DNA of 61,877 bases, filler included. It is 5 parts of 5 records of this genome, joined end to end, with 100 filler letters (N's around TTAATTAATTAA, not from the genome) between each part and the next. Parts side by side here need not be neighbours in the genome. Positions count along the whole stretch, not along the records: positions 25,167 to 36,168 come from SRR20825019_2482; 4 more parts are not named here. The stretch is one strand, 5' to 3'. The translations under genes were made by a program, and so were the position numbers. Numbering within the stretch: position 1 is the first letter of the stretch; every line of letters begins with the position of its first letter. This document shows positions 2,377 to 51,669 of this stretch, piece by piece. The notes under the pieces were generated by a model. It had not been told where the DNA came from and did no database searches. It worked only from the letters and a program-made list of their open reading frames with translations.

Positions 2377-2388
2377 TAGTTTGTTTTT

Positions 2389-10900: not shown

Positions 10901-13900
10901 GCCGTCGTCACCAATCTCGACCCAGTCGTTGGTCCAGGCCCCGTCATCTGCGGTGTAGCTGTTGCTGTCAAAGGTCTCGGAGAAGATCGTCTCGTTGACG
11001 ACGGTATCGAGGGTCACCGTGGCGCCATCCGTATCGGTGCCGCCGGTTGCGGTGTAGTCAAAGTCCCCATCCAGGGCGCCGGTATCGGTCACGGTGACCG
11101 AGTCGGCACCCAGCACTGCCGTCAGGCCGGTCTGTCCTGATACGGCTGTGATGTCGATTGTATTGTCCGGATCGGAGTCATTGAGCAGCAGGGCCCATTT
11201 GGGGACCTCGATGCTCGTGCCGGGCAGGACATTGGTGATGATGGTGTCGTTATTGGCGACCACCGGGTCATCCACCGCCACCACATTGACGGTCGTGGTC
11301 GACACAGCGCTGTTGACGAAGCCATCATTGACGGTGACTTCGATGATGCGGGGTGTCTGGTCCGGATTCTGAGAAGTGTTCCGGAACTCGATCTGCTGCA
11401 AGGCAGTCTGCCAGTCGGCCTCGTCCGGTTCCCCACCAGCACCGGCGGTGAGCGTGACAATGATCTGCCCACCGACCGTCTCGACACTGCTGTTGATATT
11501 GCCGGCCAGGTTTCCGGGAATGTCGAACTCATCGCCCGCCATGGCATTGGTCAGAACGATCCGGGCCGAAACAATCTCGTCGTTTTCGACGATAAGGGGA
11601 TTGCTGGCGATGTCCTGGTCAGGTCCGCCTTCGGTGAAGGTGGTTTCGTAGTTCATCGACGGTTCGCCGGAGAAATTGATCACCAGGTCATTGATGGTCA
11701 CCACGTCGTCGGTCGAGGTCATCGCACTGACTTCGAAGCGAATTGCCGCATTGGCTGCGAACGGGCCCGTCAGGTTGTGGGTGTGGTTCTGTGTGCCGAT
11801 GTGAGTGTTGTTGATCTCCTCGAGAAAATTGAAGGTGCTCCCATCCGCAGCGAAGAAGACACGAACCCATTCGCCAGTCTCGAGACCGCTCTGGTTCACC
11901 ACGAAGGATATCGCAGCACTGGAGGCGCCCGACAGGTCCATCGTACGGGTAATCGAGGCACCATCATTGCCAGCGGCACCGCCAGGGCCCGTACCGCTGA
12001 GACGCAGCACATTGTTGCCGTTGTCGATCTGGATCTGGCCCGCGGTCACACCACCGCTATCTCCGGTTTCGACCCAATCCGGATCCCAGTCGGTGGCCCC
12101 GTTCGAGTTGCCAAAGCCCGGTGTGTTGAAATTGTCCGCAAATTGCCCGCTGGCCTGCTCCAGGAACAGTTCTGGCGCATTGAACGTGATGGTCTGATCA
12201 AGGAACTGCAGCCGTTCGACATTGCGCAGCGTGTCCACGCCATCGGAGATCAGCGGGCGGCCGGTGACCGCGTCGTCGATATTGCTGACATTGACATGCG
12301 CGACCGTGATCGTGCCGTCGCCATTCGTGGTGATGGTGTAGTTGAAGCTGCCATCGTCGTTCTGCAGGTTGTCGTTGAAGACGGCCGTATCGACATCGCC
12401 TTGTTCACCCACGTCCGGGAGAATTTCGCGAACGATGTGCATCTGGCTGGGGACAATAGCCCGCGACACCAGCAGTTCGAACAGCGACTTGCCGATCCAC
12501 TCGGGCTCCACCGCGTCTACCGCAGTGAACACATGCTTGAGCGTGTAGATTGTGGCAATTTCATTTTCTGCGGTGTTTTCCGCATCCGGCGCTGTCAGGC
12601 GAATGCGCACATTCAGTGCCGCGTTGCCGTCGATGAAGTCATCGCCGCCATTGCCCTGCAGGGTATCGCTGCCGGCACCGCCGAGCAGGATATTGCCGCC
12701 CGTGAAGGCCACCAGTTCCTCACTGTCGCCCAACCCCACGGAGATGAGATCGCCCAGCAGCTCGCGCAGGCCTTCGATACGGGCCAGGCCGGCTTGGCTC
12801 AACTCGTCCTTGAAGAACAGGGCTTCAGTGTTGTTGATCGTGGGAACCTCCGGCGCGTCGCCGGCAGCGCGATCATCGCCGCGAAGGATATCGTCCCCGG
12901 CACCGCCCGAGAGCGCTTCGACCTTGTCAAAGCGGTTGCGCAGGATATCGGCTTCTTCGGTGGTGAAGATGCGGATCCGCATGTCGGCGTCGGCATTGAA
13001 GGTCGCGCCTTGATAGCTGACCCAGTCGAAACCGAACATGCCCTCATTGCGCATGACGCTTTCGCCCTGCACCATGATGTCGTCACCAGATTCCGCGTCG
13101 AAGTCATGCTCCTCAGAACCGGCGAACATCACGTCATGGCCGATAATGGTGGAGTTGAAGAACAGTTCGGAATTGTCGCCGGCGGTGGTGTCGAAGCCGC
13201 CTCCAGCTTCCATCCAGTCGTCGCCTTCATTGCCGAGCAGGAAGTCCACGCCGTCGCCGCCCATGATGAAGTCGTCGCCTTCACCACCGAACACTTCGGT
13301 GTCGTCCTTGCCGGCAAAGACCACGTCCTTGCCTTCGCCGCCCATCAGCACATCGAGACCGTTGGAGCTGGCGATCACGTCATTGCCGGCATCGCCCTTG
13401 ATGAAGTCGCCTTCATCGCCTTCGTCCAGGATCACGTCGTCGCCATAGCCACCCATGATCAGGTCAACGCCCTGGCCGCCTTCGATGAAGTCGTTGCCGG
13501 CGTCGCCCCAGATACCTTCGTCCCCGAGGTCGCCGATCAAAACGTCATTGCCCGACGAACCGCCAAGCACGACATGCTCGCCGCCGATATAGCGCAGATA
13601 GGTGTCATAGTAAGTGTCGAAAGGCGCTGGCATGGTTCCAGCCAGAGCCGATCCGCGCATCACCTGGGTGAAGCCCAGTCCTGCCAGGACTGCGTCGATG
13701 TCATTGGGGTCTTTTGAGAGCGGATCGTCAGGATTGTAGTCCTGCTGATACTGTTCGTTTACCTCCAGCACCATGTCGTACTTGCCGAAGGAGTCGATGC
13801 CGATGTGATGCTTGATCACGTCGTCTTCGGTCCCGCGGATACCATCGAGACCAGGTTCGGTCAGGTCGGTATTGGCCATGATCATCTTGGAGAACGAATT

Positions 13901-16831
13901 GTTTTCCAGCGCGTCGAGGAAGTTGAGGCCCTGCGTACGGGTGAGGTAGTAGAACCGGTCCGCATCCTGCAGCGCTTCCATCTGCGCTTCGAAGACGGCC
14001 GTGAAGGTCGAACCGAGCATGCCGCCGAACAGCAGGATCTTTTCGGCCAGGCCACCGATCCACAGATCGACATTGTTGAGGCCACCCAGAGCATCGGCGT
14101 ATGCGCCAGTGCCGTTGATGAAGTCGTCACGCCCAACCAGGGCAGTCGCCACGCCACTCGTGTCCACGCCGAACACCAGTTCCATCGCGATGTCGCGCTT
14201 TTCGGCCAGCGTCGTGGCGGTAAGGAGCGCGGTGTGCGTGCCATAGGCGGCCACGAAATTGACCACCGAAAGCGGGTTTTTCAGCCCCACGGCGAAGTCG
14301 GCCCAGCTGTTGTAGGGCCGCAGGAAGCTCTGTCCGGTCGCGGCATAAAGCTGCTCGCGAGCCTGGTTGAGCGTCGGCATGCCGGTATCGCGACCACGAG
14401 CGATATTGATCGAGGCCAGGTCGAGCGGCAGGCCGAGCAGGTTGTTGCGCAGGGCATCGACAACAAATTCGTCGATGGCATTGCCGCGCACATTGGTTAG
14501 CCCGCGCACAATGGCGCCGGCAGCCTGTTCGTGGGTGACACCGCCGTCGAGGTCATACCCGACAGGGTCCAGGAACGCAGCGATCAGGCCCTCATCGACG
14601 GTTTCGAGGAAAGCATTGTCGTAATTGCCGTCCACCTCATTCAGCAGGAATGCCCTTGGCAAGCTGTCGGTCAGCATGGAGTGACCGAAGCGGTACACCA
14701 CATTGGCGAACTCGGCGAAAATGGCCGGGTTGATGTCGGTGACCGAATTGAAGACGAACGGGTCGATGGCCGGCTGTATCTTGCGGCCGAACTCTTCGAA
14801 CACCAGGTGCTGGTACTGCATTTCGGTGGCAAAGCGCGCCGCCTGGAAAATGCGTTCGCCATCCCAGTTCAGCGTCAGCCCTTCGATGAAGTCATGCTTG
14901 TTGACTGCAGCATCCAGGCCAGCATGGAGCGTGGTCAGTTCTCCGGCGGTCAGGTCGGTGACCAGCCATTCGTTGACAAAGGCGAGATCACCCTCTTCCA
15001 GGATTTTGAGCTTCTGGATCACGGTCTGGCGATTGTGCTCGGAGTGGAACACATGGTGCACGGCGGTGAGGCCGAAGTTCTCGTTGCCGCGGCCGTCGCC
15101 GGTGATGAAGTGGCGGTCGAGCAGGTCGCCGTCGAAATGGGTGGCGAGTGACTCGCCCGGAGCCATCGCCGGTTCACCAGCTCCAATAACCCCATCGGAA
15201 TTGAGATCATTGAGAATGCCATCGCTGTCGCGCAGTTTCAGACCACCGGTCTGGCTGTTGGTCGGATTCGCGGCATGGGCAATGTCATCAAGGAACGCGT
15301 GGCCGATGCGCATGGCAGCAACGCTAAACGTGTTGACCGGCGTACCGAGGTCGCCTTCCTCAGTCGTGGCCGGGGTGCCATTCACATTGATGCTGGTGAC
15401 GATCTGCGGCAGACCATTGGCGCCGCGAACAAATTCGCCATAGGCGTCGGTGTAGATCAATGGGATATTGACCACGTCGCCATCGGTGAGTTCGATACCC
15501 AGCATGGTCGCGGCCTGCGCCTTGACGTCGGCCCAGGTGGCCAGGCCCCCATTGGCGCCTTCGAGCAGGCGGCCGGTTGCCACGGGAACGCCACCCACCA
15601 TCTGGTACTCGCGCAGGAACACCTGATGCGAGGCGTGTGAGGTATAGGTCTGGTTCTGGTCGACAAAGGGCGTGGTTGTGTTGACCTGGGTCGGCTGACC
15701 GTTCTCGTCCAGCACGGTGGTCGAGCGGGTCAGGACCATGAAGCGCAAATGGCCTGGCAGGTCGTCGGCAGACTCGTCCACATCGAGAGTGTCCGGGTTG
15801 TCCCCGATGATCCCGTCGGCCCCGCCGATCAGCGGATCATCGGCCTGCAGTGGCATGAAGATGGTGCCATTGCCGCCCTTGGTGATCAGGTCCAGACCAT
15901 GGTCGAAGAACTGGCCGAAAAAGGTCATCCAGGCGTTGAAAGGCGCAGAGATGCCTTCGTCAGGCGCCACATTGGGGATGACCAGGCCACCATCTTCATT
16001 AAGGATGCCCATATCGCTGGCCATTGCCAGGAAGGCGGCCTCCGGATCGGCCGATGTCGACTGTGCGTCCGCCAGGGCCTCTTCGGCCGAAGTGAGAAGT
16101 GCACCGGTCGCCTGGATTGCGTCCCACGTCGTCGAGTCTGCTGGATTGTAGCCCGCCATGGCGGCTTGGAATGCCAATTCTGCGGTATCAACTGCTTGTT
16201 GTAGGGCAGTCAGGTCCGCGCCGCCCGCACTGCGGGCGGCAAGCAAGGCGGCAAGGTCGGCATAAGGATCTTCAGATCCAGCAAAAACCAGGGCGGCAAA
16301 CAACGCCGCCGGGTTGTTGATGCTCATATCCGCGACGAGATTGGAAATGATGCGCGGATCAGAATCGACCACATTGCCCGTATGACCACCATTGGCTGTC
16401 GTGCCGGGAATAGTGGGCACACCGTTGGTAACGCCATAATCGGTATTGGTTACGGGCAGAGGAACGCCCGGTCCCGGAGGGCCGAAGGCGAACGGGTCTT
16501 CCGGACCGCCATCGATATAGTTCGGGTCGAGATAGCGCGGCATGGGCTGGTCGGCGGCGCCCCAAAGTTCGCGGCCTTCCATCAGGTTGTTGTAGCTGCC
16601 ATCGACAGTACGGACGCCGAACGGGGTCTTGGGGTCGGGAATGGCGAGTGGGAAGCCGGGGCCGCCGGTGAAGACGCCATTGGCGTCATACATCGCGCCA
16701 TCGGTAATCACTTCGCCCGTCACCGGGTCCAGCCTGATTTCGGTCAGCGCCGCCCCGTTCGCATGTGCTTCACCAATCTTGATCTGCTTGAGAATGAATT
16801 GCAGGTCATTGAGGTTAAGTTCGATCGCCAT
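7748..16831 (-). CDS. Giant animal-type heme peroxidase (peroxidase-cyclooxygenase superfamily) with two peroxidase domains and RTX Ca-binding repeats; MopA/PepA-like; 3' end truncated
   Basis: Two sets of motifs: FFGQ(F/Y)FDHGLD, DGR(G/A)NEN, YRFGHSML, DLA.(I/L)NI.RGRD; many GGxGxD repeats between them; RBS GGAGG upstream; no stop before the contig end. Confidence 0.92.
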
Positions 16832-25066: not shown

Positions 25067-25166
25067 NNNNNNNNNNNNNNNNNNNNNNNNNNNNNNNNNN
25101 NNNNNNNNNNTTAATTAATTAANNNNNNNNNNNNNNNNNNNNNNNNNNNNNNNNNNNNNNNNNNNN
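25067..25166. other. Artificial contig spacer
   Basis: N-run + TTAATTAATTAA + N-run. Confidence 0.98.
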
Positions 25167-27512: not shown

Positions 27513-29429
27513 TTATTGGCTCTCAAGATAATACTGGGATGGATTGGTTGGTGCCGGTGTGGCATAGCTCCAAGCCGCCGGGATGACCTTGGGAACATTC
27601 TTGAAGTTCTTTGCCACCAGCCCTTTGCGATTGGGCGGCAAGGCAATTCCCATAACGTAAAACTGATTTGCGCTGATGTCGAGAATATCGCGCATAAGTT
27701 TATTCTGTTTTTCTGCATCTGCGGTGGCTTTCAACTGGTTATAGAGTTCCAGTTGACGGATAACCTCGGCCGGGGGCTCAACCGCGTCGGGATTTTTCGG
27801 GTCGGAATACCATTGTGCCCAACCGGTGGCGTACCAGGATGATTCACTGGATACCGGCAGGTAGTTGATCGGCAGAACCATGGCATCAAGCCCGCCATCA
27901 CCGCCCCATGCGCTGGCATGGTGATTGTTTTTTTCACGCATATCGACAAATACATCACGCGATAAGTCGCGGGCGGTCACATCAAGTCCGACATCACGCC
28001 AGTAATCGATAACGGCAGAGAGCATTTCGAAGCGGGATGCGCCTTCGGTATCGATGGTAAAGGACAGCCTTTTGCCATCGGGACGCAGAAGGAAACCTTC
28101 GTCGTCTTTGCGTGTCAAACCGGCATTCGCCAGATGGCTTGCGGCAAGTACTGGATCATAGGTAATGAACTGGCGTGCGAGAACCGTGTGGTAAAGCGGG
28201 CTTTCGGGACGTGGTGCTGCCTGATGGGGCAGGGCACCGGGAACGAACCGGCCAATGATGCTGTCGCGGTCGATGGCATGCGACAGGGCCACGCGGAATT
28301 CCTTGTTCTGGAATATGTCGCGAAGCACCGGGTCCCTGTCGTTCAGATTAAGCGACAGGGTCAGGATATTCATGTCGCTTTCAATCAGCGTGAAGGATTG
28401 CAGATTGCTATTGGCCGCAAGAATTTCGTCCACGCGGCGGCCAATATGGCGTTCCTGCATATTGACCCTGCCTGTGATGGCGGTGTCACCGGCTTCATCT
28501 TTGCTGCCAACCAGATCAAAGGAAACCCGATCAATATAGGGTAACTGACGTCCGCCGGGATCGATTTTCCAATAAAACGGATTGCGAACCGCAACCAGCG
28601 GATCGTCTTTGCCATATGTCCCGGTCAGACTCCAGCCGTTCAGGGTCGGAACTTGCGGGTTCATCCAGCGGCTGGGATCGTCTATGGTGCCCGGCGTTCC
28701 GAACACCGAAAGGAAGCGATCTTTCCAATCCTTGAAGCCAAGCTTTTGCGCATCGGCATCTGCGTGCCTGTTATATTTCGGAAGCAGGGGTCTCAGGAAA
28801 TGGGCGGGATAGCTTACCGGTTCGACACCTTCGGGCCGGGCAAGAAAGGTCGGAAACAGCCCATAGGGCGTGTCGAAGCGGAACGCGACCGTGGTTTCGT
28901 CGATTTTTTCAACATGCACCGGATTTCCGCCTGCGGTCAGCCATTCAGGCGTCGCATTGCCAAAAGCCGGATTGCGTAAAATGTCGTCGTACCAGAAGGA
29001 TATATCCTCGGCGGTAAAAGGCGCACCATCCGACCAGCGCATGCCCGGACGCAACCGGAAGACAAATTCCGTGGCGTCACTGTTGGCCTGCATCGAAAGA
29101 GCAACGTTGGGAACCGTGTCTGTCCATTGCGGGGTCCAGCGCAGAAGCGGTTCATAGCCGATCGTCCTGATCAGAAGGGCGTGATCGCGTTCCGAATTTT
29201 GCGCCATCATCCAGGTGCCGCCATACTGGCCAAGCTTGTCAGTCGGGGTAACAATCATAGGAGTCTTGGGCAGGCGTTCTGCGGCCGGGGGCAATTTGCC
29301 GTTCGCCACCATCTCGGCAAGCATCGGCGCTTCGCCGAATTCGGCTGCATATGCATTATTCCGGGGCGCGGTCAAAACCACGGCCAGCAATAATACCAGC
29401 GATATAAAGCAACCCACTACCCTGTACAC
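27513..29429 (-). CDS. ABC-type family 5 solute-binding protein
   Basis: Signal peptide, EAPMLAEMV..GKLPP..ERLP, GMRWSDGAPFTAEDI, RNPFYWKID..GRQLPYID, FRVALSHAIDR. Confidence 0.9.
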   Translation of the reverse strand: MYRVVGCFISLVLLLAVVLTAPRNNAYAAEFGEAPMLAEMVANGKLPPAAERLPKTPMIVTPTDKLGQYGGTWMMAQNSERDHALLIRTIGYEPLLRWTPQWTDTVPNVALSMQANSDATEFVFRLRPGMRWSDGAPFTAEDISFWYDDILRNPAFGNATPEWLTAGGNPVHVEKIDETTVAFRFDTPYGLFPTFLARPEGVEPVSYPAHFLRPLLPKYNRHADADAQKLGFKDWKDRFLSVFGTPGTIDDPSRWMNPQVPTLNGWSLTGTYGKDDPLVAVRNPFYWKIDPGGRQLPYIDRVSFDLVGSKDEAGDTAITGRVNMQERHIGRRVDEILAANSNLQSFTLIESDMNILTLSLNLNDRDPVLRDIFQNKEFRVALSHAIDRDSIIGRFVPGALPHQAAPRPESPLYHTVLARQFITYDPVLAASHLANAGLTRKDDEGFLLRPDGKRLSFTIDTEGASRFEMLSAVIDYWRDVGLDVTARDLSRDVFVDMREKNNHHASAWGGDGGLDAMVLPINYLPVSSESSWYATGWAQWYSDPKNPDAVEPPAEVIRQLELYNQLKATADAEKQNKLMRDILDISANQFYVMGIALPPNRKGLVAKNFKNVPKVIPAAWSYATPAPTNPSQYYLESQ

Positions 29430-29940
29430 TTCGGGCTTCCCCTGAATTTCTTATGCTTATCGAAAGGTATCGATTATCCTACTCTTAGGTGGTGAATATC
29501 CTAAAGCCATTTCCGGGTAAAGTTCTGAAAGCGGATTTTCCCCTGATCTTTTAAAGATGCGCGAGCTGTTCGTTTTTACAACGCAAAGGCGGATAATTTT
29601 CCTATTTGCACCTTTTGGGATCGATAAACAACATATCGGTCCGCCGTGTTTTCGCTTGAACCACGTGAAATGAAGCGATTGAAGGGCCCCGGTTACGCCA
29701 AGGTCAAGAGTTTTGACCTTGATCTGTGCCGGTTTCCCGACCATTTGGACAGGAATGATCTTTTGCCCCGATCAACGACGAATTCGACTAAAGTTTAACA
29801 TAACCTAATATGGGTACTGCCATCATATAAGTTTTCGGTGATCAATTTCGTTCTGGGCCGTTTCGTGGGGCATTTGACGTCAAAGACACCAATTGTGATT
29901 CTTCTTGCCAGAACGAGCGGATCGGAGAGACAATTTCTGA

Positions 29941-30219
29941 ATGGCAAAAAAATCTGCATCATCCGGGCAGGCTTCTTCTGATCCGGGGTATCTGCCTGGG
30001 CCAAAGCCGTCGGCACCGATCCCGCGTTATCAGCCGGGATCATCGCCGGGCCGTCATCGCCCGAACGATGAGGGAGATGACATTGATGCTTACAGTTTTT
30101 CTGTGGCCGGTATCGACGGGAAAATTGATCGTCGCAAGGCCAATATTGCAAACCGGATTGTCGATACCGATCCTGGACAGGCATTGCGTGTGATCAGAAA
30201 TTGGTTGGCCCAGAACTGA
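29941..30219 (+). CDS. Small protein whose C-terminus resembles the FliF C-terminal tail
   Basis: GGAGAG upstream; disordered Pro/Ser N-half; C-half VAGIDGKI...RIVDTDPGQALRVIRNWLAQN. Confidence 0.6.
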   Translation: MAKKSASSGQASSDPGYLPGPKPSAPIPRYQPGSSPGRHRPNDEGDDIDAYSFSVAGIDGKIDRRKANIANRIVDTDPGQALRVIRNWLAQN

Positions 30220-30310
30220 TGGTCGTTTCTGATCTTTGTTTCTGTTTCACTTTGCATTTCGGGCGGCACCTGTTTTAAGTCGTCGAACACACCGATGACA
30301 GGGGGCCAGC

Positions 30311-31525
30311 GTGACAGATTTCAATTCCTTGATAGAGCAGCAGTTCAGTGCTTTTGATCCGGACTATTCCGATAGAAAAGGTGCCTATGCCGACAAGCTT
30401 GCCCCGCTGGAAGAAAAACTGATTGCGGCCCAGCAGACCGGCAATAGCATGGCCGCGTCCGATCAGTATATGATCGAGTGCAAGTGGTTGCTGCTTTATA
30501 CCGCTGACTGGGATGGGCTGGAAAAGAAGATAGCCCAGTTTGAAAAATCGCTGAAAAACAAGGATCAGGACTGGGCCGAGGAACAGGTGGCAAGCGATGG
30601 TTCGTGGGGACCATGCTATGACCAGTGGTTCCTGAAGGTGGATGCGATGATCGATGCGATCAACGCGCTGGCAGACGAGGGGATTGCACCGGATTATCCG
30701 CTGACTTTTCTGTCGCCGATTGCCAAACCCGCCGATCTTGTTGCCTGGCTGGACAGTCAGAAAACATCACGGATTTTTGCCGATGGTCTGGATCGCCGCG
30801 ATGCATTGGGCGCGGTCAGTGCCGCCTTGTCGGAAATGTGCTTCAAAAGCGAAATCCGCGATTATTTCCGCCAGTATGTCAAAGGTTTCGATCTTAGCGA
30901 CGATTATATCGCAGCTTATAAAAGCTGGCTGGATGATTGGCAGGACGCGCAATCGGGATATTGGGGCGGCTGGTTTGAAACAGATACGGGCGATATTCTG
31001 AAAAGCCCGGACCTTAGTCTGACGTTCCACAATATTTCGTATCAGCATGGCAAGGTCGGGCTTTGGCCCGCTATTTTCAAAACGACACTGGCGATCCGTG
31101 ATGATGCCTATCCGTTTGGCTGGAAGCACAATGGTGACTTCAACAATCACAACAATTATGACGTTGCCAAAATCTTTGACCTTGGCTGGGCGGAAGTCGA
31201 CAGCGATAGCCAGAAATTGGCATCAGCCGATATTTCCACGATCCTGGACTGGTGTCTGACCAAATCCATGACGCCGGATGGCGGATTCATCGATGACCCG
31301 ACTTTTTATAATTCGGTCGGGGCGGCGTATTATTATGGTGTGTCGTTCCTTGATCAGATTGGATATTTCGGCACCGATATTCCGTTCTGGACAGACCATG
31401 CCTTTGCCGATGGTCCTGCACTGTGCTGCAAGATCCAGAAAAAGATGAAGGCCGAAAAACTCGATGATGACGAAGCGGAGGCGGCGATGGAGAAGCTGTT
31501 GGATGCCTGCGGAAACTGTGGCTAG
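30311..31525 (+). CDS. Uncharacterised acidic protein with QW-like repeats (possible alpha/alpha-toroid, prenyltransferase/terpene-cyclase-like fold)
   Basis: Long ORF with G-rich RBS; motifs Q..SDGSWG, WQDAQSGYWG, MTPDGGF. Confidence 0.7.
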   Translation: MTDFNSLIEQQFSAFDPDYSDRKGAYADKLAPLEEKLIAAQQTGNSMAASDQYMIECKWLLLYTADWDGLEKKIAQFEKSLKNKDQDWAEEQVASDGSWGPCYDQWFLKVDAMIDAINALADEGIAPDYPLTFLSPIAKPADLVAWLDSQKTSRIFADGLDRRDALGAVSAALSEMCFKSEIRDYFRQYVKGFDLSDDYIAAYKSWLDDWQDAQSGYWGGWFETDTGDILKSPDLSLTFHNISYQHGKVGLWPAIFKTTLAIRDDAYPFGWKHNGDFNNHNNYDVAKIFDLGWAEVDSDSQKLASADISTILDWCLTKSMTPDGGFIDDPTFYNSVGAAYYYGVSFLDQIGYFGTDIPFWTDHAFADGPALCCKIQKKMKAEKLDDDEAEAAMEKLLDACGNCG

Positions 31526-31635: not shown

Positions 31636-31995
31636 ATGTCTGAGCGTAGCGATATTGACATTGCATTCTTGCGTCAGCGACTTGAAGACCGGCGCGCGGA
31701 TATAAGTGCCCATTCAAATCATTCGGAAGATTATCGAAAGCCGGTCGAGCTTGATCAGCAGGCCGTCGGCCGCCTGTCACGGATGGATGCGCTTCAGGAT
31801 CAGCAAATGCATCTGGAACAGGAGCGCCGTCGTGCTGCCGAACTTGATCGCATCGAAAAGACGCTGGCCCGGATCGAGCATGCCGATTACGGCTTCTGCC
31901 ACAATTGTGGTGAAGAAATAGAGAAGAAGCGTCTGGAATTTGACCCGACCACACCGCTTTGCGTTGATTGCGCTGCCCATGTCAAACACAGTTAG
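31636..31995 (+). CDS. TraR/DksA-family C4 zinc-finger protein
   Basis: Coiled coil, YGFCHNCGEEI..KRL...P...LCVDCA. Confidence 0.88.
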   Translation: MSERSDIDIAFLRQRLEDRRADISAHSNHSEDYRKPVELDQQAVGRLSRMDALQDQQMHLEQERRRAAELDRIEKTLARIEHADYGFCHNCGEEIEKKRLEFDPTTPLCVDCAAHVKHS

Positions 31996-32041: not shown

Positions 32042-32794
32042 ATGGCAGTTCAAAGCGCGAAACGTACCGAAACGACCCTATTGAATACGTGGGGCATGGG
32101 CACATTATGCGGACTGTTCGTGTTGTTTCTGCTTTTTATGGGGAGTGGTTCTGCGCAGTCACAGCAAAACAGTTGCGCGGTCGCGCGTGCGCCTGTTGCA
32201 AGCCTTTCATTTATCAATCAGGACCCGATGCTGGATCGTCATCGGTCTGTTCGCTGGCTTAACAACCGGGCCAATCAGGGCAGTCGCTATATGGTGACCG
32301 GCCTGACCGAATATGAACTTCAGGCGCGGTTTGACATGCGCCTTGAGCCAGTCGAGGTTGGAGTTGGGGCATTCTGTCTGTATCCGATCCGGATCAGTCC
32401 AGAAGTCGAAGTGATCAAGCATCTGGTGTATGTCGCGTCCGAGCTTGAACGCGGCACATGTGAGTATGATGTGGTCTATGCCCATGAAGGGCAGCACGTG
32501 CAGATCAATCAGCATATGGAGCAGGATATCCAGCGCGAACTTGATGCCATGGTCGCCGAAATCATGGCGGACTTTGCCGCCATGCGACCGGTTGGTGCGG
32601 GCGATGTGCAACGCCTGCAACGGCGGTTACTGAACCAGTATGGACAGGATTTTAAACGCCGTTTGCGCGCCATTGATCTTGCCCGGCGCGAAGACCATCG
32701 TGCGATAGATACCCCGGATGAATATGAACGGCTATCGAAGGCGTGCGGGCCAAATTCGGCATTCCAGACAACATTGCCCGATGCAATGCGCTGA
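32042..32794 (+). CDS. Secreted HExxH protein (DUF922-like putative zinc peptidase)
   Basis: Hydrophobic signal segment, C.YDVVYAHEGQHV, C-terminal DTPDEY....C. Confidence 0.6.
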   Translation: MAVQSAKRTETTLLNTWGMGTLCGLFVLFLLFMGSGSAQSQQNSCAVARAPVASLSFINQDPMLDRHRSVRWLNNRANQGSRYMVTGLTEYELQARFDMRLEPVEVGVGAFCLYPIRISPEVEVIKHLVYVASELERGTCEYDVVYAHEGQHVQINQHMEQDIQRELDAMVAEIMADFAAMRPVGAGDVQRLQRRLLNQYGQDFKRRLRAIDLARREDHRAIDTPDEYERLSKACGPNSAFQTTLPDAMR

Positions 32795-36168: not shown

Positions 36169-36268
36169 NNNNNNNNNNNNNNNNNNNNNNNNNNNNNNNN
36201 NNNNNNNNNNNNTTAATTAATTAANNNNNNNNNNNNNNNNNNNNNNNNNNNNNNNNNNNNNNNNNNNN
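36169..36268. other. Artificial contig spacer
   Basis: N-run + TTAATTAATTAA + N-run. Confidence 0.98.
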
Positions 36269-36911
<643 letters not shown>

Positions 36912-37015
36912 AGCGCGAGCGCGCGTGGTCACACCTGACGCAAGATCAGGATTGCGCGCAGAGTTTTTGTTGGGCCGGCCAGGATGAGTTGGCAGGTTAT
37001 TGGGGGAGCGTGAGA

Positions 37016-39211
37016 GTGAGTGTGAGCAAGGAAAGCTGGCAGGCGGACGAACGGGAAATCGAAGCCATTGTGGCGGGGCGCCACAGCAATGCCTTTGCTT
37101 TCCTCGGCCTGCATGAAGTGGAAGGGCACTGGGTTCTGCGGGCCTTTGTTCCGCATGCCGATACGCTGAACGCCTTCACGCTGGATGGCACGCCACTCGG
37201 GCACATGATCCCGCGCCACAAGGGCGGGTTCTTCGAGACCAAGGTGGATATCACCGAGCGGCAGCCGATCCGCTACGAGGCCAAGAACTCTGGCGGAAGC
37301 TGGACAGCCTATGACCCCTATTCCTTCGGCCCGGTGCTCGGCCCGATGGACGACTATTACATCGGCGAAGGCAGCCACTTGCGGCTGTTCGACAAGATGG
37401 GCGCCCACGAAATGGAATTCGAGGGGATCCACGGCACCCATTTCGCGGTCTGGGCGCCCAATGCACAGCGCGTTTCCGTGGTGGGGCCATGGAATGAATG
37501 GGATGGCCGTCGTCACCCGATGCGCAATCGGCAGGGTATCTGGGAAGTGTTCATCCCCGTGCTGGGGACCGGCACGATCTACAAATACGAGATCGTCGGG
37601 CCGAATGGGCAGGTCCTGCCTTTGAAGGCGGACCCCTATGCCCGGCAGGCCGAAATGCGGCCGCGGACCGCGTCGGTGGTGCCAGATCCGACGCCATTTG
37701 TCTGGACCGACCAGAAATACATGGAAGAGCGTGCCACCCGCGACTGGCGCCGCACGCCGATGTCCATTTACGAAGTGCATCTGGGGTCCTGGCGGCGGCG
37801 ACCCGATGGCAGCTTCATGTCCTATGACCAGCTTGCCGAGCAGCTCGTGCCCTATGCGGCCGATATGGGCTACACCCATCTCGAATTGATGCCGATCTCC
37901 GAGCATCCTTTCGATCCGAGCTGGGGCTACCAGCCAACCGGGCTTTATGCCCCGACAGCGCGGTTTGGCGATCCGGCGGGGTTTGCGCGACTGGTCAATG
38001 CGGCCCATGAGGCGGGGTTGGGGGTGATCCTGGACTGGGTGCCTGCGCATTTCCCGACTGACGAGCATGGGCTGAGCCATTTCGACGGCACTGCGCTATA
38101 TGAACATGAAGACCCGCGCCAGGGTTTTCATCCGGACTGGAACACGGCGATCTACAATTTCGGGCGCAAGGAGGTCTCGGCCTACCTCACCAACAATGCG
38201 CTGTTCTGGTTCGACCAGTTCCACATTGATGGGCTGCGGGTCGATGCGGTCGCCTCGATGCTCTATCTCGACTATTCGCGCCAGCCCGGCGAATGGGTGC
38301 CCAACCAGCATGGCGGCAACCAGAACCTGGAGGCGGTGGCTTTCCTGCAGCGGGTCAATGCCGAGGTGTATCGCCAATTTCCCGGCGCCTTCATGGTCGC
38401 AGAAGAATCGACAGCCTGGCCTGGGGTCAGTTCGCCGATCTATGCTGGCGGGCTCGGCTTCGGCTTCAAGTGGAACATGGGCTTCATGAACGACACCTTG
38501 CGGTTCATGAGCCGCGAGACTATCCACCGCCGCTTCCACCACAACGACATGACCTTCGGGCTGATGTACGCGTTCAGCGAGAATTTCGTCCTGCCGCTGA
38601 GCCATGACGAGGTGGTGCATGGCAAGGGCGCGCTGCTTGCGAAAATGCCGGGAGACGACTGGCAGCAATTTGCGAACCTGCGCGCCTATCTGGCCTTCAT
38701 GTGGGGCCATCCGGGCAAGAAGCTGTTGTTCATGGGCCAGGAGTTCGCGCAGCGCGAGGAATGGTCCGAGAGCCAGGCACTAGACTGGTATCTGCTCGAC
38801 GCGCCGAGCCATGAAGGCATGCGACGTTTGGTGGCCGATCTCAATGCGGCCTATCGCAGCCTGCCGGCGCTTTATGGCCGCGATTGTGAACCCGAGGGGT
38901 TCGAATGGGTGATCGGCAATGACCAGGCCAATTCCGTGCTGGCGTGGCTGCGCAAGGCGCCGGACGCCGATCCGGTGCTGGTGATCTCCAATTTCACGCC
39001 AGTGCCACGCAGTCATTACAAGGTGCCGCTGCCCAAGGCCGGGCGCTGGGTGGAGCGGATCAATACCGATGCCGGTTGGTATTCCGGTGGGAACACAGGC
39101 AATCAGGGCGCCGTTGTGGCCAAGGCTGTCGAGGGGCAGCACTGGCCGGCCGAGGCGGAAATCTATCTGCCGCCATTGGCGACACTGTTTCTGAAATATG
39201 AGCCGGCTTGA
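37016..39211 (+). CDS. glgB: 1,4-alpha-glucan branching enzyme
   Basis: FAVWAPNA, YEVHLGSW, WGYQ, DGLRVDAVASM, AEESTAW, LSHDEVVHGK. Confidence 0.96.
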   Translation: MSVSKESWQADEREIEAIVAGRHSNAFAFLGLHEVEGHWVLRAFVPHADTLNAFTLDGTPLGHMIPRHKGGFFETKVDITERQPIRYEAKNSGGSWTAYDPYSFGPVLGPMDDYYIGEGSHLRLFDKMGAHEMEFEGIHGTHFAVWAPNAQRVSVVGPWNEWDGRRHPMRNRQGIWEVFIPVLGTGTIYKYEIVGPNGQVLPLKADPYARQAEMRPRTASVVPDPTPFVWTDQKYMEERATRDWRRTPMSIYEVHLGSWRRRPDGSFMSYDQLAEQLVPYAADMGYTHLELMPISEHPFDPSWGYQPTGLYAPTARFGDPAGFARLVNAAHEAGLGVILDWVPAHFPTDEHGLSHFDGTALYEHEDPRQGFHPDWNTAIYNFGRKEVSAYLTNNALFWFDQFHIDGLRVDAVASMLYLDYSRQPGEWVPNQHGGNQNLEAVAFLQRVNAEVYRQFPGAFMVAEESTAWPGVSSPIYAGGLGFGFKWNMGFMNDTLRFMSRETIHRRFHHNDMTFGLMYAFSENFVLPLSHDEVVHGKGALLAKMPGDDWQQFANLRAYLAFMWGHPGKKLLFMGQEFAQREEWSESQALDWYLLDAPSHEGMRRLVADLNAAYRSLPALYGRDCEPEGFEWVIGNDQANSVLAWLRKAPDADPVLVISNFTPVPRSHYKVPLPKAGRWVERINTDAGWYSGGNTGNQGAVVAKAVEGQHWPAEAEIYLPPLATLFLKYEPA

Positions 39212-39268
39212 GGCGGCTCGGGTGAGATAAGACCCGGCAGAAGCCGGGCTCAAGCGGAGGGAAATAAT

Positions 39269-40536
39269 ATGGCTGATTATCGAGTACCATCGCCGCTGGC
39301 GCGTGAGGCCATGGCCTATGTGCTGGCGGGAGGGCGCGGCACGCGCCTGATGGAACTGACCGACCGGCGTGCCAAGCCGGCGGTGTATTTTGGCGGCAAG
39401 TCGCGGATCATCGACTTTGCGCTTTCCAATGCCATCAATTCGGGCATTCGCCGCATTTCTGTGGCCACGCAATATCAGGCGCATTCCCTGATCCGCCATT
39501 TGTCGCGCGGGTGGAACTTTCTGCGTCCCGAACGCAATGAGAGCTTTGACGTGCTGCCGGCCAGCCAGCGGGTGCGCGAAGACATGTGGTATGCCGGCAC
39601 CGCTGACGCGGTGTACCAGAACATGGACATCATCGAGGATTCCGGCGCCCGCTATATCGTCATCCTCGCGGGCGACCACATCTACAAGATGGACTACGAA
39701 ATCATGCTCCGCCAGCATGTGGATACGGGCGCGGACGTGACCATCGGATGCCTTGAAGTGCCCCGCATGGAAGCTGTCGGCTTCGGCGTGATGCATGTCG
39801 ATGGCCGCGATCGGGTGGTTGATTTCGTCGAAAAGCCCAAGGACCCGCCTGGCATTCCCGACAAGCCGGATATGGCCCTGGCCTCGATGGGCATCTATGT
39901 GTTCGAGACGCGTTTCCTAATGGAGCAGCTCAAGCGCGACGCGGCGACCGAAGGGTCCAATCGCGACTTCGGCAAGGATATCATTCCCTATATCGTCAAG
40001 AACGGCACCGCCTGGGCGCACCGCTTCCCGCGTTCCTGCGTGCGCTCGAGCAATGAAGAAGTCAGCTATTGGCGCGATGTGGGCACGATCGACGCCTATT
40101 GGAAAGCGTCCATCGACCTGACCGACATCAAGCCGCAGCTCGATCTGTATGATCGCGACTGGCCGATCTGGACCTATGCCGAGATCACGCCGCCGGCCAA
40201 GTTCGTGCATGATTTCGACGGCCGCCGGGGTTCTGCCGTCAACTCGCTGGTTTCTGGCGATTGCATCATCTCGGGCGGACATTTGCAGCGGACCCTGCTG
40301 TCGACCGGCAGCCGGGTGCATTCCTATTCCATGCTCGAGGAAGCAGTTGTGCTGCCCTATTGCGATATCGGGCGCAATGCGCGGCTCAAGAAGGTGGTCA
40401 TTGATCGTGGCGTCAACATTCCCGAAGGCCTGGTGGTGGGCGAAGACCCCGAGTTCGACGCCAAGTGGTTCCGCCGGTCCGACGAGGGCGTGACGCTGAT
40501 TACCCAGGCCATGATCAACAAATATCTGGCGGATCG

Positions 40537-40540
<4 letters not shown>
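39269..40540 (+). CDS. glgC: Glucose-1-phosphate adenylyltransferase
   Basis: [34 protein letters not shown]. Confidence 0.96.
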
Positions 40541-43615
<3,075 letters not shown>

Positions 43616-43622
43616 GTTCGCC

Positions 43623-45635
43623 TTGTCCATTAAGCCAGCATTGGTGCCCCGTGGCGGGCACACAGACCATCTGGGTGCCACCGTTACGGCGGAGGGGGTC
43701 AATTTTGCCGTTTATTCGGAAAGCGCGACCGCGATCTGGGTCTGCCTGTTCGACGAACAGGACAAGGAGATCGAGCGGTTCGAGCTGGACGTCCACCAAG
43801 ACAATGTGCGTGCCGGACTGATCGCCAATGTCGGGCCGGGCGCGCGCTATGGGCTGCGGGCCGATGGACCCTATGATCCGGACCAAGGTTTTTTCTTCGA
43901 TCCCAACAAGCTTTTGGTTGATCCCTATGCGCGCCATCTGGATCGGGTGTTCGTGCGCTCGCCGCGCCTGAGGCTGGCGCGTGAGGATGGGGTGGATACC
44001 GCCGAGCTGGTACCCAAGGCCATCGTGCCGGGTGGCGGCAATGACCCCGCTCAACCCAGAAAAAAGGCGCCGGGCCTTTACTACGAACTCAATGTGCGCG
44101 GTTTCACCATGCGGCATCCAGGCGTGCAGGGGCCGCTGCGCGGTACCGTGGCGGCGCTGACGACGCGGCGGGTGATCAATCATTTCAAGCATCTGGGCGT
44201 CGACACCGTCCAGCTCATGCCGACGGCGGCCTGGATCGACGAGGGGCATCTGCCCCAGCTTGGGCTGACCAATGCCTGGGGCTACAACCCAATTGCCTAT
44301 TTCGCGGTCGATCCGCGGTTGGCGCCGCGTGGGCCCCAGGAATTGCGGGTGATGACCGACGCCTATCGCAAGGCCGGCATCTCGGTGATCCTGGACGTGG
44401 TCTATAACCATACCGGCGAGGGCGACAGCCAGGGCCCGATCCTCTCGATGATGGGGCTTGATCCGCAGACCTATTATCGCTGGGTCGAGGTGGATGGCAA
44501 AAAGCATCTGGTCAACGATACCGGCACCGGCAACACGCTGCGCTGCGACCACCCTGCCGTGCAGCGGCTGGTGATCGAAAGCTTGCGCTATTATGTCGAA
44601 GAGCTGGGTGTGTCCGGCTTCCGCTTTGATCTGGCGACCATTCTGGGCCGCGATCCGGGGTTCAACCCCGAAGCCGAGATGCTGGAAAAGATTAAGGCCG
44701 ATCCGGTGCTGAAAAAGGCGATCCTGGTCGCCGAGCCCTGGGATCCGGGTCCGGGCGGCTATGGGTTGGGCAAGTTCGGCAAGGATTTTGCCGAGCACAA
44801 CGATACCTACCGCGATGAGATCCGCGCCTTCTGGAAAGGCGAGAACGGCAAGATCGGGGCGCTGGCCGGCAAGGTGTCGGGATCGGCGGAAATCTTCGAT
44901 GTTGCGGGCCGCAAGCCCAGCGCCGGGGTCAACATGCTGGCCGTGCATGACGGATTCACCCTGCGGGATCTGGTCAGCTATCACGACAAGCACAACGAAG
45001 CGAATGGCGAGAACAATCGCGACGGCCACAACCACAATTCCTCTTGGAATTGCGGGGTTGAAGGCGAAACAGATGACGAAGCGATCAATCATGCCCGCAA
45101 GCGCGATGTGCGGGCGCTGCTGGCCACGCTGTTTCTCTCGCGCGGAACGCCGCTGATCCAGCAGGGCGACGAGATGTATCGCACCCAGCAGGGCAACAAT
45201 AACGCCTATGCCCAGGATAATGAGATCACCTGGGTCGACTGGGAGAATGGCGACGGTGCGCTGGTGGATTTCGTCGGGGCGCTACAGGGTTTCCGCAAGG
45301 CCCATCCGGCGGTGAGCCATGACCACTGGCTGACCGGCCTGGATCGCAATGGCGTGCGCGATGTGGTCTGGCTGCATCCCGATGGACGCGAAATGACCGA
45401 GGCGGACTGGAACGACAGCGGCGCATCGGTGCTGGGCATGCATCTGCGCCACAGGGACGACGACGTGCTGGTTTGGTTCAATCGCCGGGTCGAGCCGGTC
45501 GTGGCGCGTCTGCCGGAAGGCGACTGGGGCGTCGGCATCCAGTCCGACCCGTCATTCGAGGTGGCCTTCACTGAAGGTACGGCAACCTTGCCGCCGCGAT
45601 CCGTGGTGGCATTGGTGCGGCCCAAGGCCAGCTAG
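43623..45635 (+). CDS. glgX: Glycogen debranching enzyme
   Basis: NKLLVDPYA, WGYN, DVVYNHTGE, GFRFDLA, AEPWD, HDGFTLRD, GNNNAYAQDN; start approximate. Confidence 0.93.
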   Translation: MSIKPALVPRGGHTDHLGATVTAEGVNFAVYSESATAIWVCLFDEQDKEIERFELDVHQDNVRAGLIANVGPGARYGLRADGPYDPDQGFFFDPNKLLVDPYARHLDRVFVRSPRLRLAREDGVDTAELVPKAIVPGGGNDPAQPRKKAPGLYYELNVRGFTMRHPGVQGPLRGTVAALTTRRVINHFKHLGVDTVQLMPTAAWIDEGHLPQLGLTNAWGYNPIAYFAVDPRLAPRGPQELRVMTDAYRKAGISVILDVVYNHTGEGDSQGPILSMMGLDPQTYYRWVEVDGKKHLVNDTGTGNTLRCDHPAVQRLVIESLRYYVEELGVSGFRFDLATILGRDPGFNPEAEMLEKIKADPVLKKAILVAEPWDPGPGGYGLGKFGKDFAEHNDTYRDEIRAFWKGENGKIGALAGKVSGSAEIFDVAGRKPSAGVNMLAVHDGFTLRDLVSYHDKHNEANGENNRDGHNHNSSWNCGVEGETDDEAINHARKRDVRALLATLFLSRGTPLIQQGDEMYRTQQGNNNAYAQDNEITWVDWENGDGALVDFVGALQGFRKAHPAVSHDHWLTGLDRNGVRDVVWLHPDGREMTEADWNDSGASVLGMHLRHRDDDVLVWFNRRVEPVVARLPEGDWGVGIQSDPSFEVAFTEGTATLPPRSVVALVRPKAS

Positions 45636-47247: not shown

Positions 47248-47880
47248 CTATTCCGCCGCTGCGGCGACAAACCCACCATGCTTTTCAATAAAGCCAATGA
47301 TCTGGTCGAGGCTTTCGCGGCGCAGCAGGTCGGTGAAGACATAGGGCCGGCCTTCGCGCACCTTCTGCGTGTCGCTTTCCATCACCTCGAGGCTGGCGCC
47401 GACATAGGGGGCCAGGTCGGTATGGGTGATGACCAGGAGGTCCGAGCGCGATATTGCGGGGCCGCCCTTGCGCGGGATCTTTTCGCCCTGCGCGACCGAA
47501 ATCACATAGATGGTGAGATCGGCCAGGTCGGGCGAGAAGGTGGCCGCCAGATTATCGCCGCCGCTCTCGATCAGCACGATGTCCAAATCGGGAAATTTGC
47601 GGTTGAGGTCGTCGATCGCGGCCAGGTTCAGAGAGGCGTCTTCGCGGATGGCTGTATGCGGGCAACCGCCGGTTTCGACGCCGACAATGCGATCCTCGGA
47701 AATGGCCTGGGCGCGCGACAGGATCAGCGCATCTTCCTGGGTGTAGATGTCGTTCGTCACCACGGCCATGGAATAGCGCTCGCGCATCGCCTTGAGCAGC
47801 ATTTCACACAAGGTGGTCTTGCCCGAGCCGACAGGCCCGCCAATGCCGATACGCAGGGGTCCGTTAAGGCTCTTGGACAT
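47248..47880 (-). CDS. ureG: Urease accessory GTPase UreG
   Basis: [38 protein letters not shown]. Confidence 0.95.
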
Positions 47881-47899
47881 GACTTGCTCCGTGTGTGTT

Positions 47900-48331
47900 T
47901 CAGACCAGACGCAGATAGATGAGTACCAGGAAGCCGATCCCCAGGAACAGGCAGAGCGGGGAATAGACCCGGCGGTCATTGAGTCGGAAATTCGGTTCGG
48001 GCGTCAGCCCGGCCCACCAGGGCGTAAAGCCGATGATACCACGGGCCAGGAACACGGCCGCAAAGCCGAAGCCGGCCAGATTGAGCTGCCAGCCGCCGCT
48101 ATCGTGATCGGCCAGGGCCAGGGCAAAGCAACCGGCGGTGAAGGTCGCAACGGCGACGGCGAGCGAGGCCAGCCTGGGCGGCATGCGCTCGATGTCCTTG
48201 AAGCCCACTACGGTCTGGGCCAGCAATTTCTCATCGCGAATGGGCCAGGTGCGGCCGAAGGCCCACATCAGATGGGCGATGGAGACGGCGAACAGGCCAA
48301 TGAACATGAAGGAGGCGAAAAGCATGTTCAT
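47900..48331 (-). CDS. Membrane protein (DUF3995-like)
   Basis: [28 protein letters not shown] overlap with the ureF stop. Confidence 0.7.
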
Positions 48332-48984
48332 GACCGGAAAATCCTCGTCGTCAGGGTCTCGTGCCGCATCTGGGCAATATCTGCGCCATAGGCCACGCTG
48401 CCAATATCGTCCAGTGCGGCATTGCGGCACAGATCGGCCATTTGCGCGATGGCCGGTTCGAGCGCGGCCATGATGGCGAGCCCGTCATTCTGCCCGATGG
48501 GCACGAGGCGCACGGCGACGGACACCTGGCCATGAACCGTTGTAGTGAGGAAGGCGATCAGCGTATCGCGGTGCTCGATGCCATGGGCGCCGGCCAATGC
48601 GCCAACGGCGATGGGGTAGGGGCAGGGTTCAGGCAGTGGCACCGGCCTTAATGTCGGCCATGCGGCGCTGGCCAGCACAAAGGCATTGCCGGTGATGGTG
48701 GTTTCGACGTGCCGCTCATGGGCGGCGGTCAGGGCGAGGCAGAGATCGGCCAGTTCGGCCAGCTTTGCCTTGTCAGCATGAGCCTGATGGGCATGGGCGA
48801 GCAGGATCGCGTCGGTCTTGAGACTGCCGTGATGCAAGACGCCGGAAATCCAGTCCTGCGTCGTCGGGCGGTCGAACACAGCCCCCTGTGAGATGGCCGT
48901 CTCAAGGCCGGCGGACCAGGCAAAGGCCCCGACCGGGAAGGCGGGGGACATCCAGGTCAGCAGTTTTTGCAGATCGGTGCTCAC
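48328..48984 (-). CDS. ureF: Urease accessory protein UreF
   Basis: SPAFPVGAFAWSAGLE, AVRLVPIGQ, C-terminal [11 protein letters not shown]. Confidence 0.94.
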   Translation of the reverse strand: MSTDLQKLLTWMSPAFPVGAFAWSAGLETAISQGAVFDRPTTQDWISGVLHHGSLKTDAILLAHAHQAHADKAKLAELADLCLALTAAHERHVETTITGNAFVLASAAWPTLRPVPLPEPCPYPIAVGALAGAHGIEHRDTLIAFLTTTVHGQVSVAVRLVPIGQNDGLAIMAALEPAIAQMADLCRNAALDDIGSVAYGADIAQMRHETLTTRIFRS

Positions 48985-49454: not shown

Positions 49455-49459
49455 GGAGA

Positions 49460-51569: not shown

Positions 51570-51669
51570 NNNNNNNNNNNNNNNNNNNNNNNNNNNNNNN
51601 NNNNNNNNNNNNNTTAATTAATTAANNNNNNNNNNNNNNNNNNNNNNNNNNNNNNNNNNNNNNNNNNNN
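51570..51669. other. Artificial contig spacer
   Basis: N-run + TTAATTAATTAA + N-run. Confidence 0.98.

Follow-up and report, generated by a model that had tools for sequence, protein, structure and literature searches.

The window analysed here, i.e. the whole stretch of 61,877 nucleotides (nt), carries at positions 29941–30219 on the plus strand a small gene for a protein of 92 amino acids (aa). The C-terminal half of this protein is, as judged from its sequence, a true homologue of the C-terminal tail of the flagellar protein FliF. The host organism is Thalassospira (Rhodospirillales), since the proteins encoded around the gene share 92–98% of their residues with their counterparts in Thalassospira xianhensis MCCC 1A02616 and Thalassospira sp. 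MCCC 1A03138. Members of this genus are harmless bacteria of the sea that can be grown in culture. A first-pass annotation of the DNA had described the gene as a free-standing mimic of the FliF tail; the open reading frame (ORF) begins with ATG, and its position and sequence are exactly those quoted there. The parts of the gene are listed below, with the confidence of the structural model given as the predicted local distance difference test (pLDDT) and selection as the ratio of nonsynonymous to synonymous substitution rates (dN/dS).

29941–30219, plus strand: gene for the 92-aa stand-alone FliF-tail protein, with ATG start and stop codon included
29989–30039, plus strand: conserved proline-rich motif, residues 17–33 (YLPGPKPSAPIPRYQPG), with the family core KPxxP[ILF]P[RK]xxPG
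30097–30216, plus strand: FliF-C-like domain, residues 53–92 (FSVAGIDGKIDRRKANIANRIVDTDPGQALRVIRNWLAQN), assigned by hhalign and by FliF being the second match genome-wide, dN/dS 0–0.20
30130–30168, plus strand: helix 1, residues 64–76, predicted by AlphaFold2, pLDDT 82–88
30172–30213, plus strand: helix 2, residues 78–91, predicted by AlphaFold2; QALRVIR.WL is invariant in the main group of orthologues
29941–29988, plus strand: variable N-terminal residues 1–16; orthologues differ here in length and sequence, and some open frames begin only at the motif
30040–30096, plus strand: variable acidic/polar linker, residues 34–52, with insertions and deletions, dN/dS 0.19–1.14, pLDDT about 50–58

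The N-terminal half, residues 1–52, is rich in Pro, Ser and Gly. In the AlphaFold2 model, built on an alignment of 18 sequences, residues 1–63 are coil and are followed by two helices (64–76 and 78–91, pLDDT 82–88), which are predicted to be amphipathic and to be separated by a break at D77–P78. The N-terminal half had been called disordered. This is correct in that it is a coil, but it is not merely disordered, as it holds the conserved proline-rich motif. The absence of transmembrane segments was also borne out: read directly, the 92 residues contain no hydrophobic segment of membrane-helix length. Likewise no ring domain is present, as neither YscJ_FliF (PF01514) nor YscJ_FliF_C (PF08345) matches the ORF or any of 18 orthologues. 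These two families span residues 33–221 and 253–437 of Salmonella FliF, i.e. the periplasmic ring domains (PMC6079021).

A pairwise BLASTP alignment with the FliF of T. xianhensis (569 aa, with the C-terminal end ...INLSQVEGRVKASSVKKIGEIVEKHPEEALSIIRNWLYQET) places residues 33–91 of the ORF on residues 512–567, with an E-value of 4e-6. The ORF was then aligned with 17 database orthologues of 80–112 aa, and the profile of this alignment was used for six-frame genome searches. In all five Thalassospira genomes searched, the 18-sequence profile finds the small gene itself first and the C-terminus of FliF second (E 5e-5 to 1e-4, about 25 bits), while the next match has an E-value of 0.07 or worse. 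In a sample of 61 genomes from the order, 39 have a match at E 0.01 or better. Three of these are Thalassospira, with both the small gene and FliF, two contain short free-standing ORFs, and in the other 34 the sole match lies inside a frame of 271–616 aa. At the 24 such loci whose ORFs were read, the match is found at the very C-terminus of an ORF of 376–548 aa ending in ...RNW(L/M)YQE.

The relationship is clearest when the profile is aligned with a second one, made from 32 FliF tails of the order (consensus ...ELIDIDRVEGRVKASSVKKIGEIVEKHPEEALSIIRNWLYQE). Here, hhalign gives a probability of 96.3% and an E-value of 1.5e-9 over 39 columns, and residues 54–92 of the ORF align without gaps with the last 39 residues of FliF. 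The positions common to both tails are [IV]-[ED]-G-[RK]-[IV], I-V-[DE]-x-x-P and A-L-x-[VI]-I-R-N-W-L. The feature that marks the FliF tail, about 40 residues with ...P.EAL.IIRNW(L/M), is present in the small protein, and helix 2 is the part most like FliF (P.EAL.IIRNWL), corresponding to its last 20 residues. The likeness to the FliF C-terminus proposed in the first-pass annotation was thus confirmed at the profile level, and the FliF pattern given there agrees with the consensus of the 32 tails. In one Joint Genome Institute (JGI) record an orthologue has been automatically named 'FliF/YscJ'.

Searches of Pfam, NCBIfam (E up to 10) and the PDB sequences with the ORF or the profile gave no match. 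These blanks carry no weight, since the FliF peptides in PDB are not found even with a profile of genuine FliF tails, and the Pfam models of FliF do not include the tail. No longer or fused relatives were found at E up to 10 in a set of 5.8 billion proteins, for the size of which the likeness is too short. A search of a representative library gave only five short matches, and Foldseek with the model of the 92-aa protein found only generic helical hairpins, with E-values above 3.

The gene is conserved and intact, as the first-pass annotation had asked to be checked. The frame is intact at 25 of 25 loci from species-representative genomes, and one copy is found in each of the 37 genomes of the genus, which makes up the whole family in the collection used. 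The FliF tail is the second match in 36 of these 37. The small gene co-exists with a single fliF (5/5 Thalassospira genomes checked) and a single fliG (10/10 checked), i.e. it is present alongside the full-length FliF. Selection was estimated by the Nei-Gojobori method for 16 pairs, chosen beforehand out of 325 possible. For the whole core dN/dS is 0.03–0.52, and for the FliF-like part it is 0–0.20 in the 14 of 16 pairs with unsaturated dS. For the proline-rich motif it is 0–0.96 over the pairs giving a value, and lowest in the more diverged pairs.

In the proline-rich motif G20, P21, K22, P23, Y30 and G33 are invariant in the 18 sequences. Its core, KPxxPφP[RK]xxPG (φ, hydrophobic), corresponds to residues 22–33, and it is modelled with a pLDDT of about 79 but without regular secondary structure. 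We read the motif as resembling a ligand of the PxxPx[RK] type. More divergent orthologues are found in eight genomes of the genus, of which seven show 27–32% and one (L114) 51% identity. Among the seven, the motif is kept as KPAPPLPR.LPG and the tail as LDGIEGRI.QNL..RA.ALVD.EPDR..AVLRRWL, and the hydrophobic pattern of helix 2, x-φ-x-V-φ-R-x-W-L, survives even at about 30% identity. As both elements are kept in the divergent subgroup, the family consists of two conserved modules joined by a free linker. No membrane helix precedes the tail in the ORF of the window or in the extended open frames of 33 orthologous loci. All this makes it very probable that we are dealing with a conserved, expressed-looking and soluble paralogue of the FliG-binding tail of FliF with an added proline-rich module, which in this form is specific to Thalassospira.

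It could be argued that such a short, lineage-restricted protein without a Pfam family is a non-functional leftover of a partial duplication of fliF. However, a decayed fliF remnant is excluded by the intact frames, the presence of a copy in every genome of the genus and the purifying selection. The low dN/dS of the C-terminal part (0–0.2) and the existence of a second conserved motif also speak against a leftover, making it very improbable.

What the protein does may be considered from the structure that its tail has been copied from. The tail of FliF together with the N-terminal domain of FliG (FliG-N) is the sole place where the flagellar rotor is fastened to the membrane ring. In Salmonella, residues 514–560 of FliF wrap domain 1 of FliG, residues 1–67 (PMC11087270). 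In Thermotoga maritima, FliG-N co-folds with the 36 C-terminal residues of FliF, and the coevolution is found mainly in the final 20 of them (PMC6079021). The FliF tail in the complex with FliG-N consists of two helices (PMC8956890), and structures of FliF-C with FliG-N named in the literature include those from T. maritima (5TDY) and Helicobacter pylori (5WUJ). The predicted helix-break-helix of the small protein is the same arrangement as the helix-hinge-helix described for FliF tails bound to FliG-N (PMC8956890, PMC6079021). As the published structures put the FliG contact in exactly the copied region, the balance tips slightly towards the small protein being a ligand that binds FliG-N in the FliF groove.

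We suggest that the gene most likely arose through a duplication of the 3' end of fliF. The last approximately 40 residues would then form the same helix-break-helix as the FliF element that co-folds with FliG-N and by which the cytoplasmic ring (C-ring) is fastened to the membrane-supramembrane ring (MS-ring). FliG bound to the small protein could not dock on the MS-ring, because the small protein has neither a membrane anchor nor ring domains. When the gene cluster is expressed, the protein would keep freshly synthesised FliG away from the MS-ring and so restrict or time the assembly of flagella, and the proline-rich motif (residues 17–33) might bind a second partner. Our preferred, still tentative, reading is that the protein is a soluble FliG-N ligand competing with or standing in for the tail of FliF, with a probability of about 0.42. 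A regulated competitor or placeholder is favoured since the gene belongs to a non-flagellar, genus-specific cluster apart from fliF and fliG, a situation similar to that of the EpsE clutch.

The C-terminus of FliF is also known in Caulobacter as a turnover signal for its cell-cycle degradation. FliF is among the listed Clp substrates of Caulobacter, and the title of a reference cited in the same paper names a FliF 'turnover signal' (PMC8973945). A free copy of the tail might compete for the protease or its adaptor and in this way set the stability of FliF. However, the conserved positions fit the pattern of FliG contacts and not that of a terminal degron, and the very last residues vary (AQN, LED, LQD), which makes a protease decoy quite improbable.

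In Thalassospira fliF, fliG and the small gene are mutually distant. In the complete genome G003, fliF is found at 823–826 kb, fliG at 2252–2254 kb and the small gene at 3.86 Mb. In many genomes elsewhere in the order, fliG comes directly after fliF, its start being no more than a few hundred bases away from the FliF tail (comparison locus G051:C7 73107–73607). This difference could favour a protein that occupies the FliF groove of FliG-N in the absence of a FliF partner and keeps FliG-N folded. It might act before docking, as the products of the unlinked fliF and fliG cannot be synthesised next to each other, or it might stay for good in those C-ring positions that are in excess of the FliF subunits. 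Consistent with such a holdase or filler, co-folding with the FliF tail involves a conformational change of FliG-N (PMC6079021), and in Salmonella the structure was modelled with 33 FliF to 34 FliG, a ratio that according to the authors need not be 1:1 (PMC11087270). Further, the diverged helix 1 would suit a weaker, displaceable ligand and the small gene is universal and single-copy in the genus. However, neither linkage nor visible co-regulation with fliG or any flagellar gene is seen, and a soluble filler provides no membrane attachment. We place this explanation second after the competitor and consider it unlikely.

The small gene is part of a locus with the order histidine kinase (minus), solute-binding protein (minus), small gene (plus), p404 (plus), DksA/TraR-like protein (plus), p250 (plus) and Crp/Fnr regulator (minus). 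The three genes following it are:

30311–31525, plus strand: p404, a 404-aa all-helical protein that adjoins the small gene at 25/25 main-type and 8/8 further loci, in two gene orders
31636–31995, plus strand: DksA/TraR-type C4 zinc-finger protein of 119 aa (PF01258, E 5e-12; weak, sub-threshold matches to DksA models)
32042–32794, plus strand: p250, a protein of 250 aa that has a hydrophobic stretch at its N-terminus and the motif HEGQH (HExxH), in the cluster at 24/25 main-type and 8/8 further loci

At all 25 main-type loci the small gene lies between p404 and the gene for the solute-binding protein. Three further genes, namely those for the histidine kinase, the DksA/TraR-like protein and p250, are found at 24 of them, the exception being L003, a contig of 2.1 kb that includes only the first 54 residues of p404 and lacks p250, and the Crp/Fnr gene at 17. 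In the seven divergent genomes (L107–L113, at about 1500–4400 in each) the small gene sits between p404 and p250; there, no DksA/TraR-like gene was found at the locus, and p404 follows the solute-binding gene with nothing in between. Thus, the small gene has been relocated, yet it stayed beside p404 and p250.

Both of these neighbours are genus-restricted. p250 has no Pfam family, and its sequence suggests an exported zinc peptidase-like protein. p404 has no Pfam or NCBIfam family and is found in only three of the 61 genomes of the order sample, all of them Thalassospira. Its AlphaFold2 model has a mean pLDDT of 62 and is poor for residues 233–368. Fold searches with p404 gave no clear match (best Foldseek E 0.24; best VIA Z 6.1, to generic helical repeats), and in Atlas it falls in hypothetical clusters only, with a prenyltransferase lead at 13% in rank 16.

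That no flagellar genes lie nearby, as had been stated from the sequence, holds for all 42 ORFs of the window scanned against Pfam (six neighbours and 36 further ones), none of which belongs to a flagellar family. Their families include sugar and glycogen metabolism, urease accessory proteins, two-component systems and a giant haem-peroxidase/RTX protein, among others. The giant ORF (7703–16831, minus strand) encodes more than 3000 aa with four stretches of animal haem peroxidase and RTX calcium-binding repeats, and its 5' part is cut by a run of N. A glycogen set at 36989–45632 (branching enzyme, glucose-1-phosphate adenylyltransferase, glycogen synthase and a debranching-type amylase) and the urease accessory genes at 47251–49859 provide an ordinary housekeeping context. 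The window also contains eight runs of 44 N inside or beside genes, arranged in four pairs with 12 bases between the members (7648–7691 and 7704–7747; 25067–25110 and 25123–25166; 36169–36212 and 36225–36268; 51570–51613 and 51626–51669). We read these as masked stretches, which explains why the translation of the histidine-kinase ORF ends in X.

Upstream of the small gene, two candidate signals can be seen:

29787–29798, plus strand: 12-mer ACTAAAGTTTAA, which includes a TAAA-N-TTTA palindrome, an invariant block in a six-sequence alignment, about 145 nt before the start codon
29905–29934, plus strand: promoter-like pair TTGCCA-18-GACAAT from a consensus scan, ending 6 nt before the ATG

The TAAAGNNTAA form of the 12-mer is found upstream at 13 of the 25 loci and in the window. 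The exact 12-mer ACTAAAGTTTAA occurs once per genome, solely at the small-gene locus, in 5/5 Thalassospira genomes. Possibly it is an operator or promoter element specific to this locus. Both hexamers of the promoter-like pair are conserved among the closest relatives, but sigma-70-like sites are not above chance (two found, 3.6 expected from shuffled sequences). If this promoter were used, the mRNA of the small gene would be nearly leaderless. The ribosome-binding site noted earlier is present in the form of GGAGAG at 29924–29929, kept in the five closest loci, but its spacing of 11 nt to the ATG is longer than usual. Readings of the upstream region as a sigma-28, sigma-54 or CtrA-box site were rejected, as none fits the known consensus sequences when compared by eye. 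Rfam gave no match on 29400–30330.

RNA-library contigs from two studies cover the small gene, and one of them (291 nt, 30052–30342) bridges the small gene and p404. These contigs are a weak sign of expression.

Free-standing FliF tails are not limited to Thalassospira. Two were found in the order sample, and among 251 genomes sampled from the class, 147 of which match the FliF-tail profile, further ones were seen:

L066:1459–1653, plus strand: soluble tail-only ORF of 64 aa in G014, order sample
L044:1291–1656, plus strand: ORF of 121 aa in G054, in which a FliF-like tail comes after a single membrane helix; unrelated genes adjoin
L140:2495–2845, minus strand: membrane-helix-plus-tail ORF, class sample
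L141:2480–2899, minus strand: membrane-helix-plus-tail ORF, class sample
L142:2351–2722, plus strand: membrane-helix-plus-tail ORF, class sample
L146, about 2246–2698, plus strand: weaker membrane-helix-plus-tail ORF, class sample

The surroundings of all six ORFs are non-flagellar. Nine of the matches in short frames in the class sample were read (left out were G097, G271:C195, G216, G127, G267, G338, G270, G166 and four more). Three of the nine are clear membrane-helix-plus-tail ORFs of 116–139 aa in non-flagellar surroundings (G153, G157 and G327, of which the latter two are related), one is weak (G249, E 7e-8), three are broken fliF frames and two lie at contig ends. The broken frames come from the unrelated genomes G285, G299 and G340 (L143:1057–2701, L144:2505–4268 and L145:940–2686). 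In these the fliF frame breaks just before the FliG-binding tail, and the tail forms a separate, overlapping frame directly upstream of fliG, either by sequencing error or by a real split.

The matches to FliF and FliG-N in the six genomes with free-standing tails are as follows:

G014: FliF 1, FliG-N 2
G153: FliF 1, FliG-N 2
G157: FliF 1, FliG-N 4
G327: FliF 1, FliG-N 2, plus 1 weak
G054: FliF none found, FliG-N 1 gene
G249: FliF none found, FliG-N none found

More FliG-N than FliF matches are thus seen in four of the six, against a background of two or more FliG-N matches in 11 of the 163 class genomes with any match and 6 of 48 in the order sample; these figures count matches rather than gene copies, fragmented assemblies are common, G157 and G327 do not represent independent cases, and the unpublished G333 was counted as having a single FliG. 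Thalassospira itself has a single FliG. We take it as a lead that such tail-only genes tend to occur in genomes with an excess of FliG. It can be speculated that free-standing FliF tails, soluble or membrane-anchored, form a so far unrecognised class of motor accessory that gives the FliF half of the split fold to FliG molecules without a partner in the MS-ring. Such FliG might occupy the surplus C-ring positions caused by the mismatch between MS-ring and C-ring, or be an orphan paralogue away from the flagellum, and the proline-rich motif of Thalassospira would be an adaptor hanging a second partner on FliG. We regard this wider picture as doubtful.

Several observations weigh against the soluble competitor that we prefer. 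First, the small protein evolves much faster than its proposed partner. Between the main and divergent subgroups of Thalassospira the last 36 residues of FliF vary at two positions only, and about 6–8 of 116 positions differ in FliG-N, while the small protein falls to 27–32% identity. Most positions of its tail have changed, and what has been kept is chiefly the hydrophobic pattern together with Pro, Arg and Trp-Leu. Judged by these substitutions, the tail is under much looser constraint than that of FliF itself, and a fast divergence next to a near-constant FliG-N weakens the picture of a simple mimic. Secondly, helix 1 lacks the KASSVKK.GEIV that is invariant in FliF. Thirdly, the small gene is never beside flagellar genes at the loci examined and is linked, in two gene orders, to the non-flagellar p404 and p250. 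The 12-mer is found nowhere else in the five genomes, i.e. no signal of a shared flagellar regulon is seen. The RNA contigs show presence in libraries, giving neither transcript ends nor levels, and could stem from DNA carry-over. Finally, the weak membrane-anchored ORF of G249 occurs in a genome in which neither FliF nor FliG was found. The fast evolution and the tight linkage to two non-flagellar genes, like the proline-rich motif, had been overlooked in the first-pass annotation.

Several of these observations would fit a co-option of the FliF-derived helix pair, in which case the hairpin and the proline-rich motif would serve the genus-specific neighbours, for example by binding p404, and no role at FliG would be left. 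The small gene has remained adjacent to p404 at 25/25 and 8/8 loci despite its move from upstream to downstream of it, p404 is restricted to the same three Thalassospira genomes out of the 61 of the order, an RNA-library contig joins the two genes, and the upstream element is unique to this locus. The rapid divergence of the small protein beside an unchanged FliG-N fits as well. However, what the small protein has in common with FliF are the residues of the final 20 that contact FliG, and these are its best conserved part, and p404 contains no recognisable FliG-like domain, although its model is poor for residues 233–368. Such a non-flagellar role, together with p404 and p250, has to be taken seriously as an alternative, even if it is unlikely in our view, and the soluble FliG-N ligand remains our preferred reading.

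Compared with the tail of FliF, the small protein has in common the homologous last 39 residues, the predicted helix-break-helix, in which the break is at a Pro, and A-L-x-[VI]-I-R-N-W-L at the end. It differs from FliF by having no transmembrane helices and no ring domains (neither PF01514 nor PF08345) in only 92 aa. Further, it is encoded by a separate gene far from fliF, has a diverged helix 1 and an extra proline-rich motif, and evolves far faster. The membrane-helix-plus-tail ORFs of other Alphaproteobacteria (L044, L140, L141, L142 and the weaker L146) are similar in being free-standing and in containing only the C-terminal end of FliF. The free-standing tails of this class are encoded outside fliF, and where a fliF was found in the same genome, it is a full one. 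However, these ORFs keep a membrane helix, while the protein of Thalassospira has the KPxxPxP[RK] motif instead and is soluble; only the 64-aa ORF at L066 is also soluble. That the membrane-anchored relatives are mostly found in genomes with surplus FliG matches (4/6) suggests that the phenomenon is wider than one genus.

Two other factors that are encoded outside the flagellar operons and switch motility when another programme is expressed are the cyclic di-GMP brake YcgR and the EpsE clutch of Bacillus subtilis, which is encoded in a biofilm operon. Both regulate the motor by binding FliG, which is also the proposed target of the small protein, but there is no sequence relation, and Pfam finds no PilZ, YcgR-N or glycosyltransferase domain in the small protein. 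Also the site would be different, as YcgR and EpsE target the rotor once it has been assembled, at FliG-C or at the interface with the stator, while the small protein would act at the joint between FliG-N and FliF. If FliG binding is true, this could represent a new control of flagellar assembly from outside the flagellar gene set or, alternatively, a missing piece for how C-rings with more FliG than FliF hold together.

A further parallel is provided by the engineered FliF-FliG fusions of Salmonella and Vibrio, which show that the FliF tail and FliG-N behave as one folding unit that can be re-partitioned between genes. In the literature that was available, in part as excerpts, no free-standing FliF tail and no natural protein imitating one side of this joint was found, which is in line with the earlier statement that no such family has been described. 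The split fold itself is known, but here the change has gone in the direction opposite to that of the fusions: the tail has been detached as a protein of its own. What is new is that the FliF half of the FliF-C/FliG-N split fold has been released as a separate, soluble protein.

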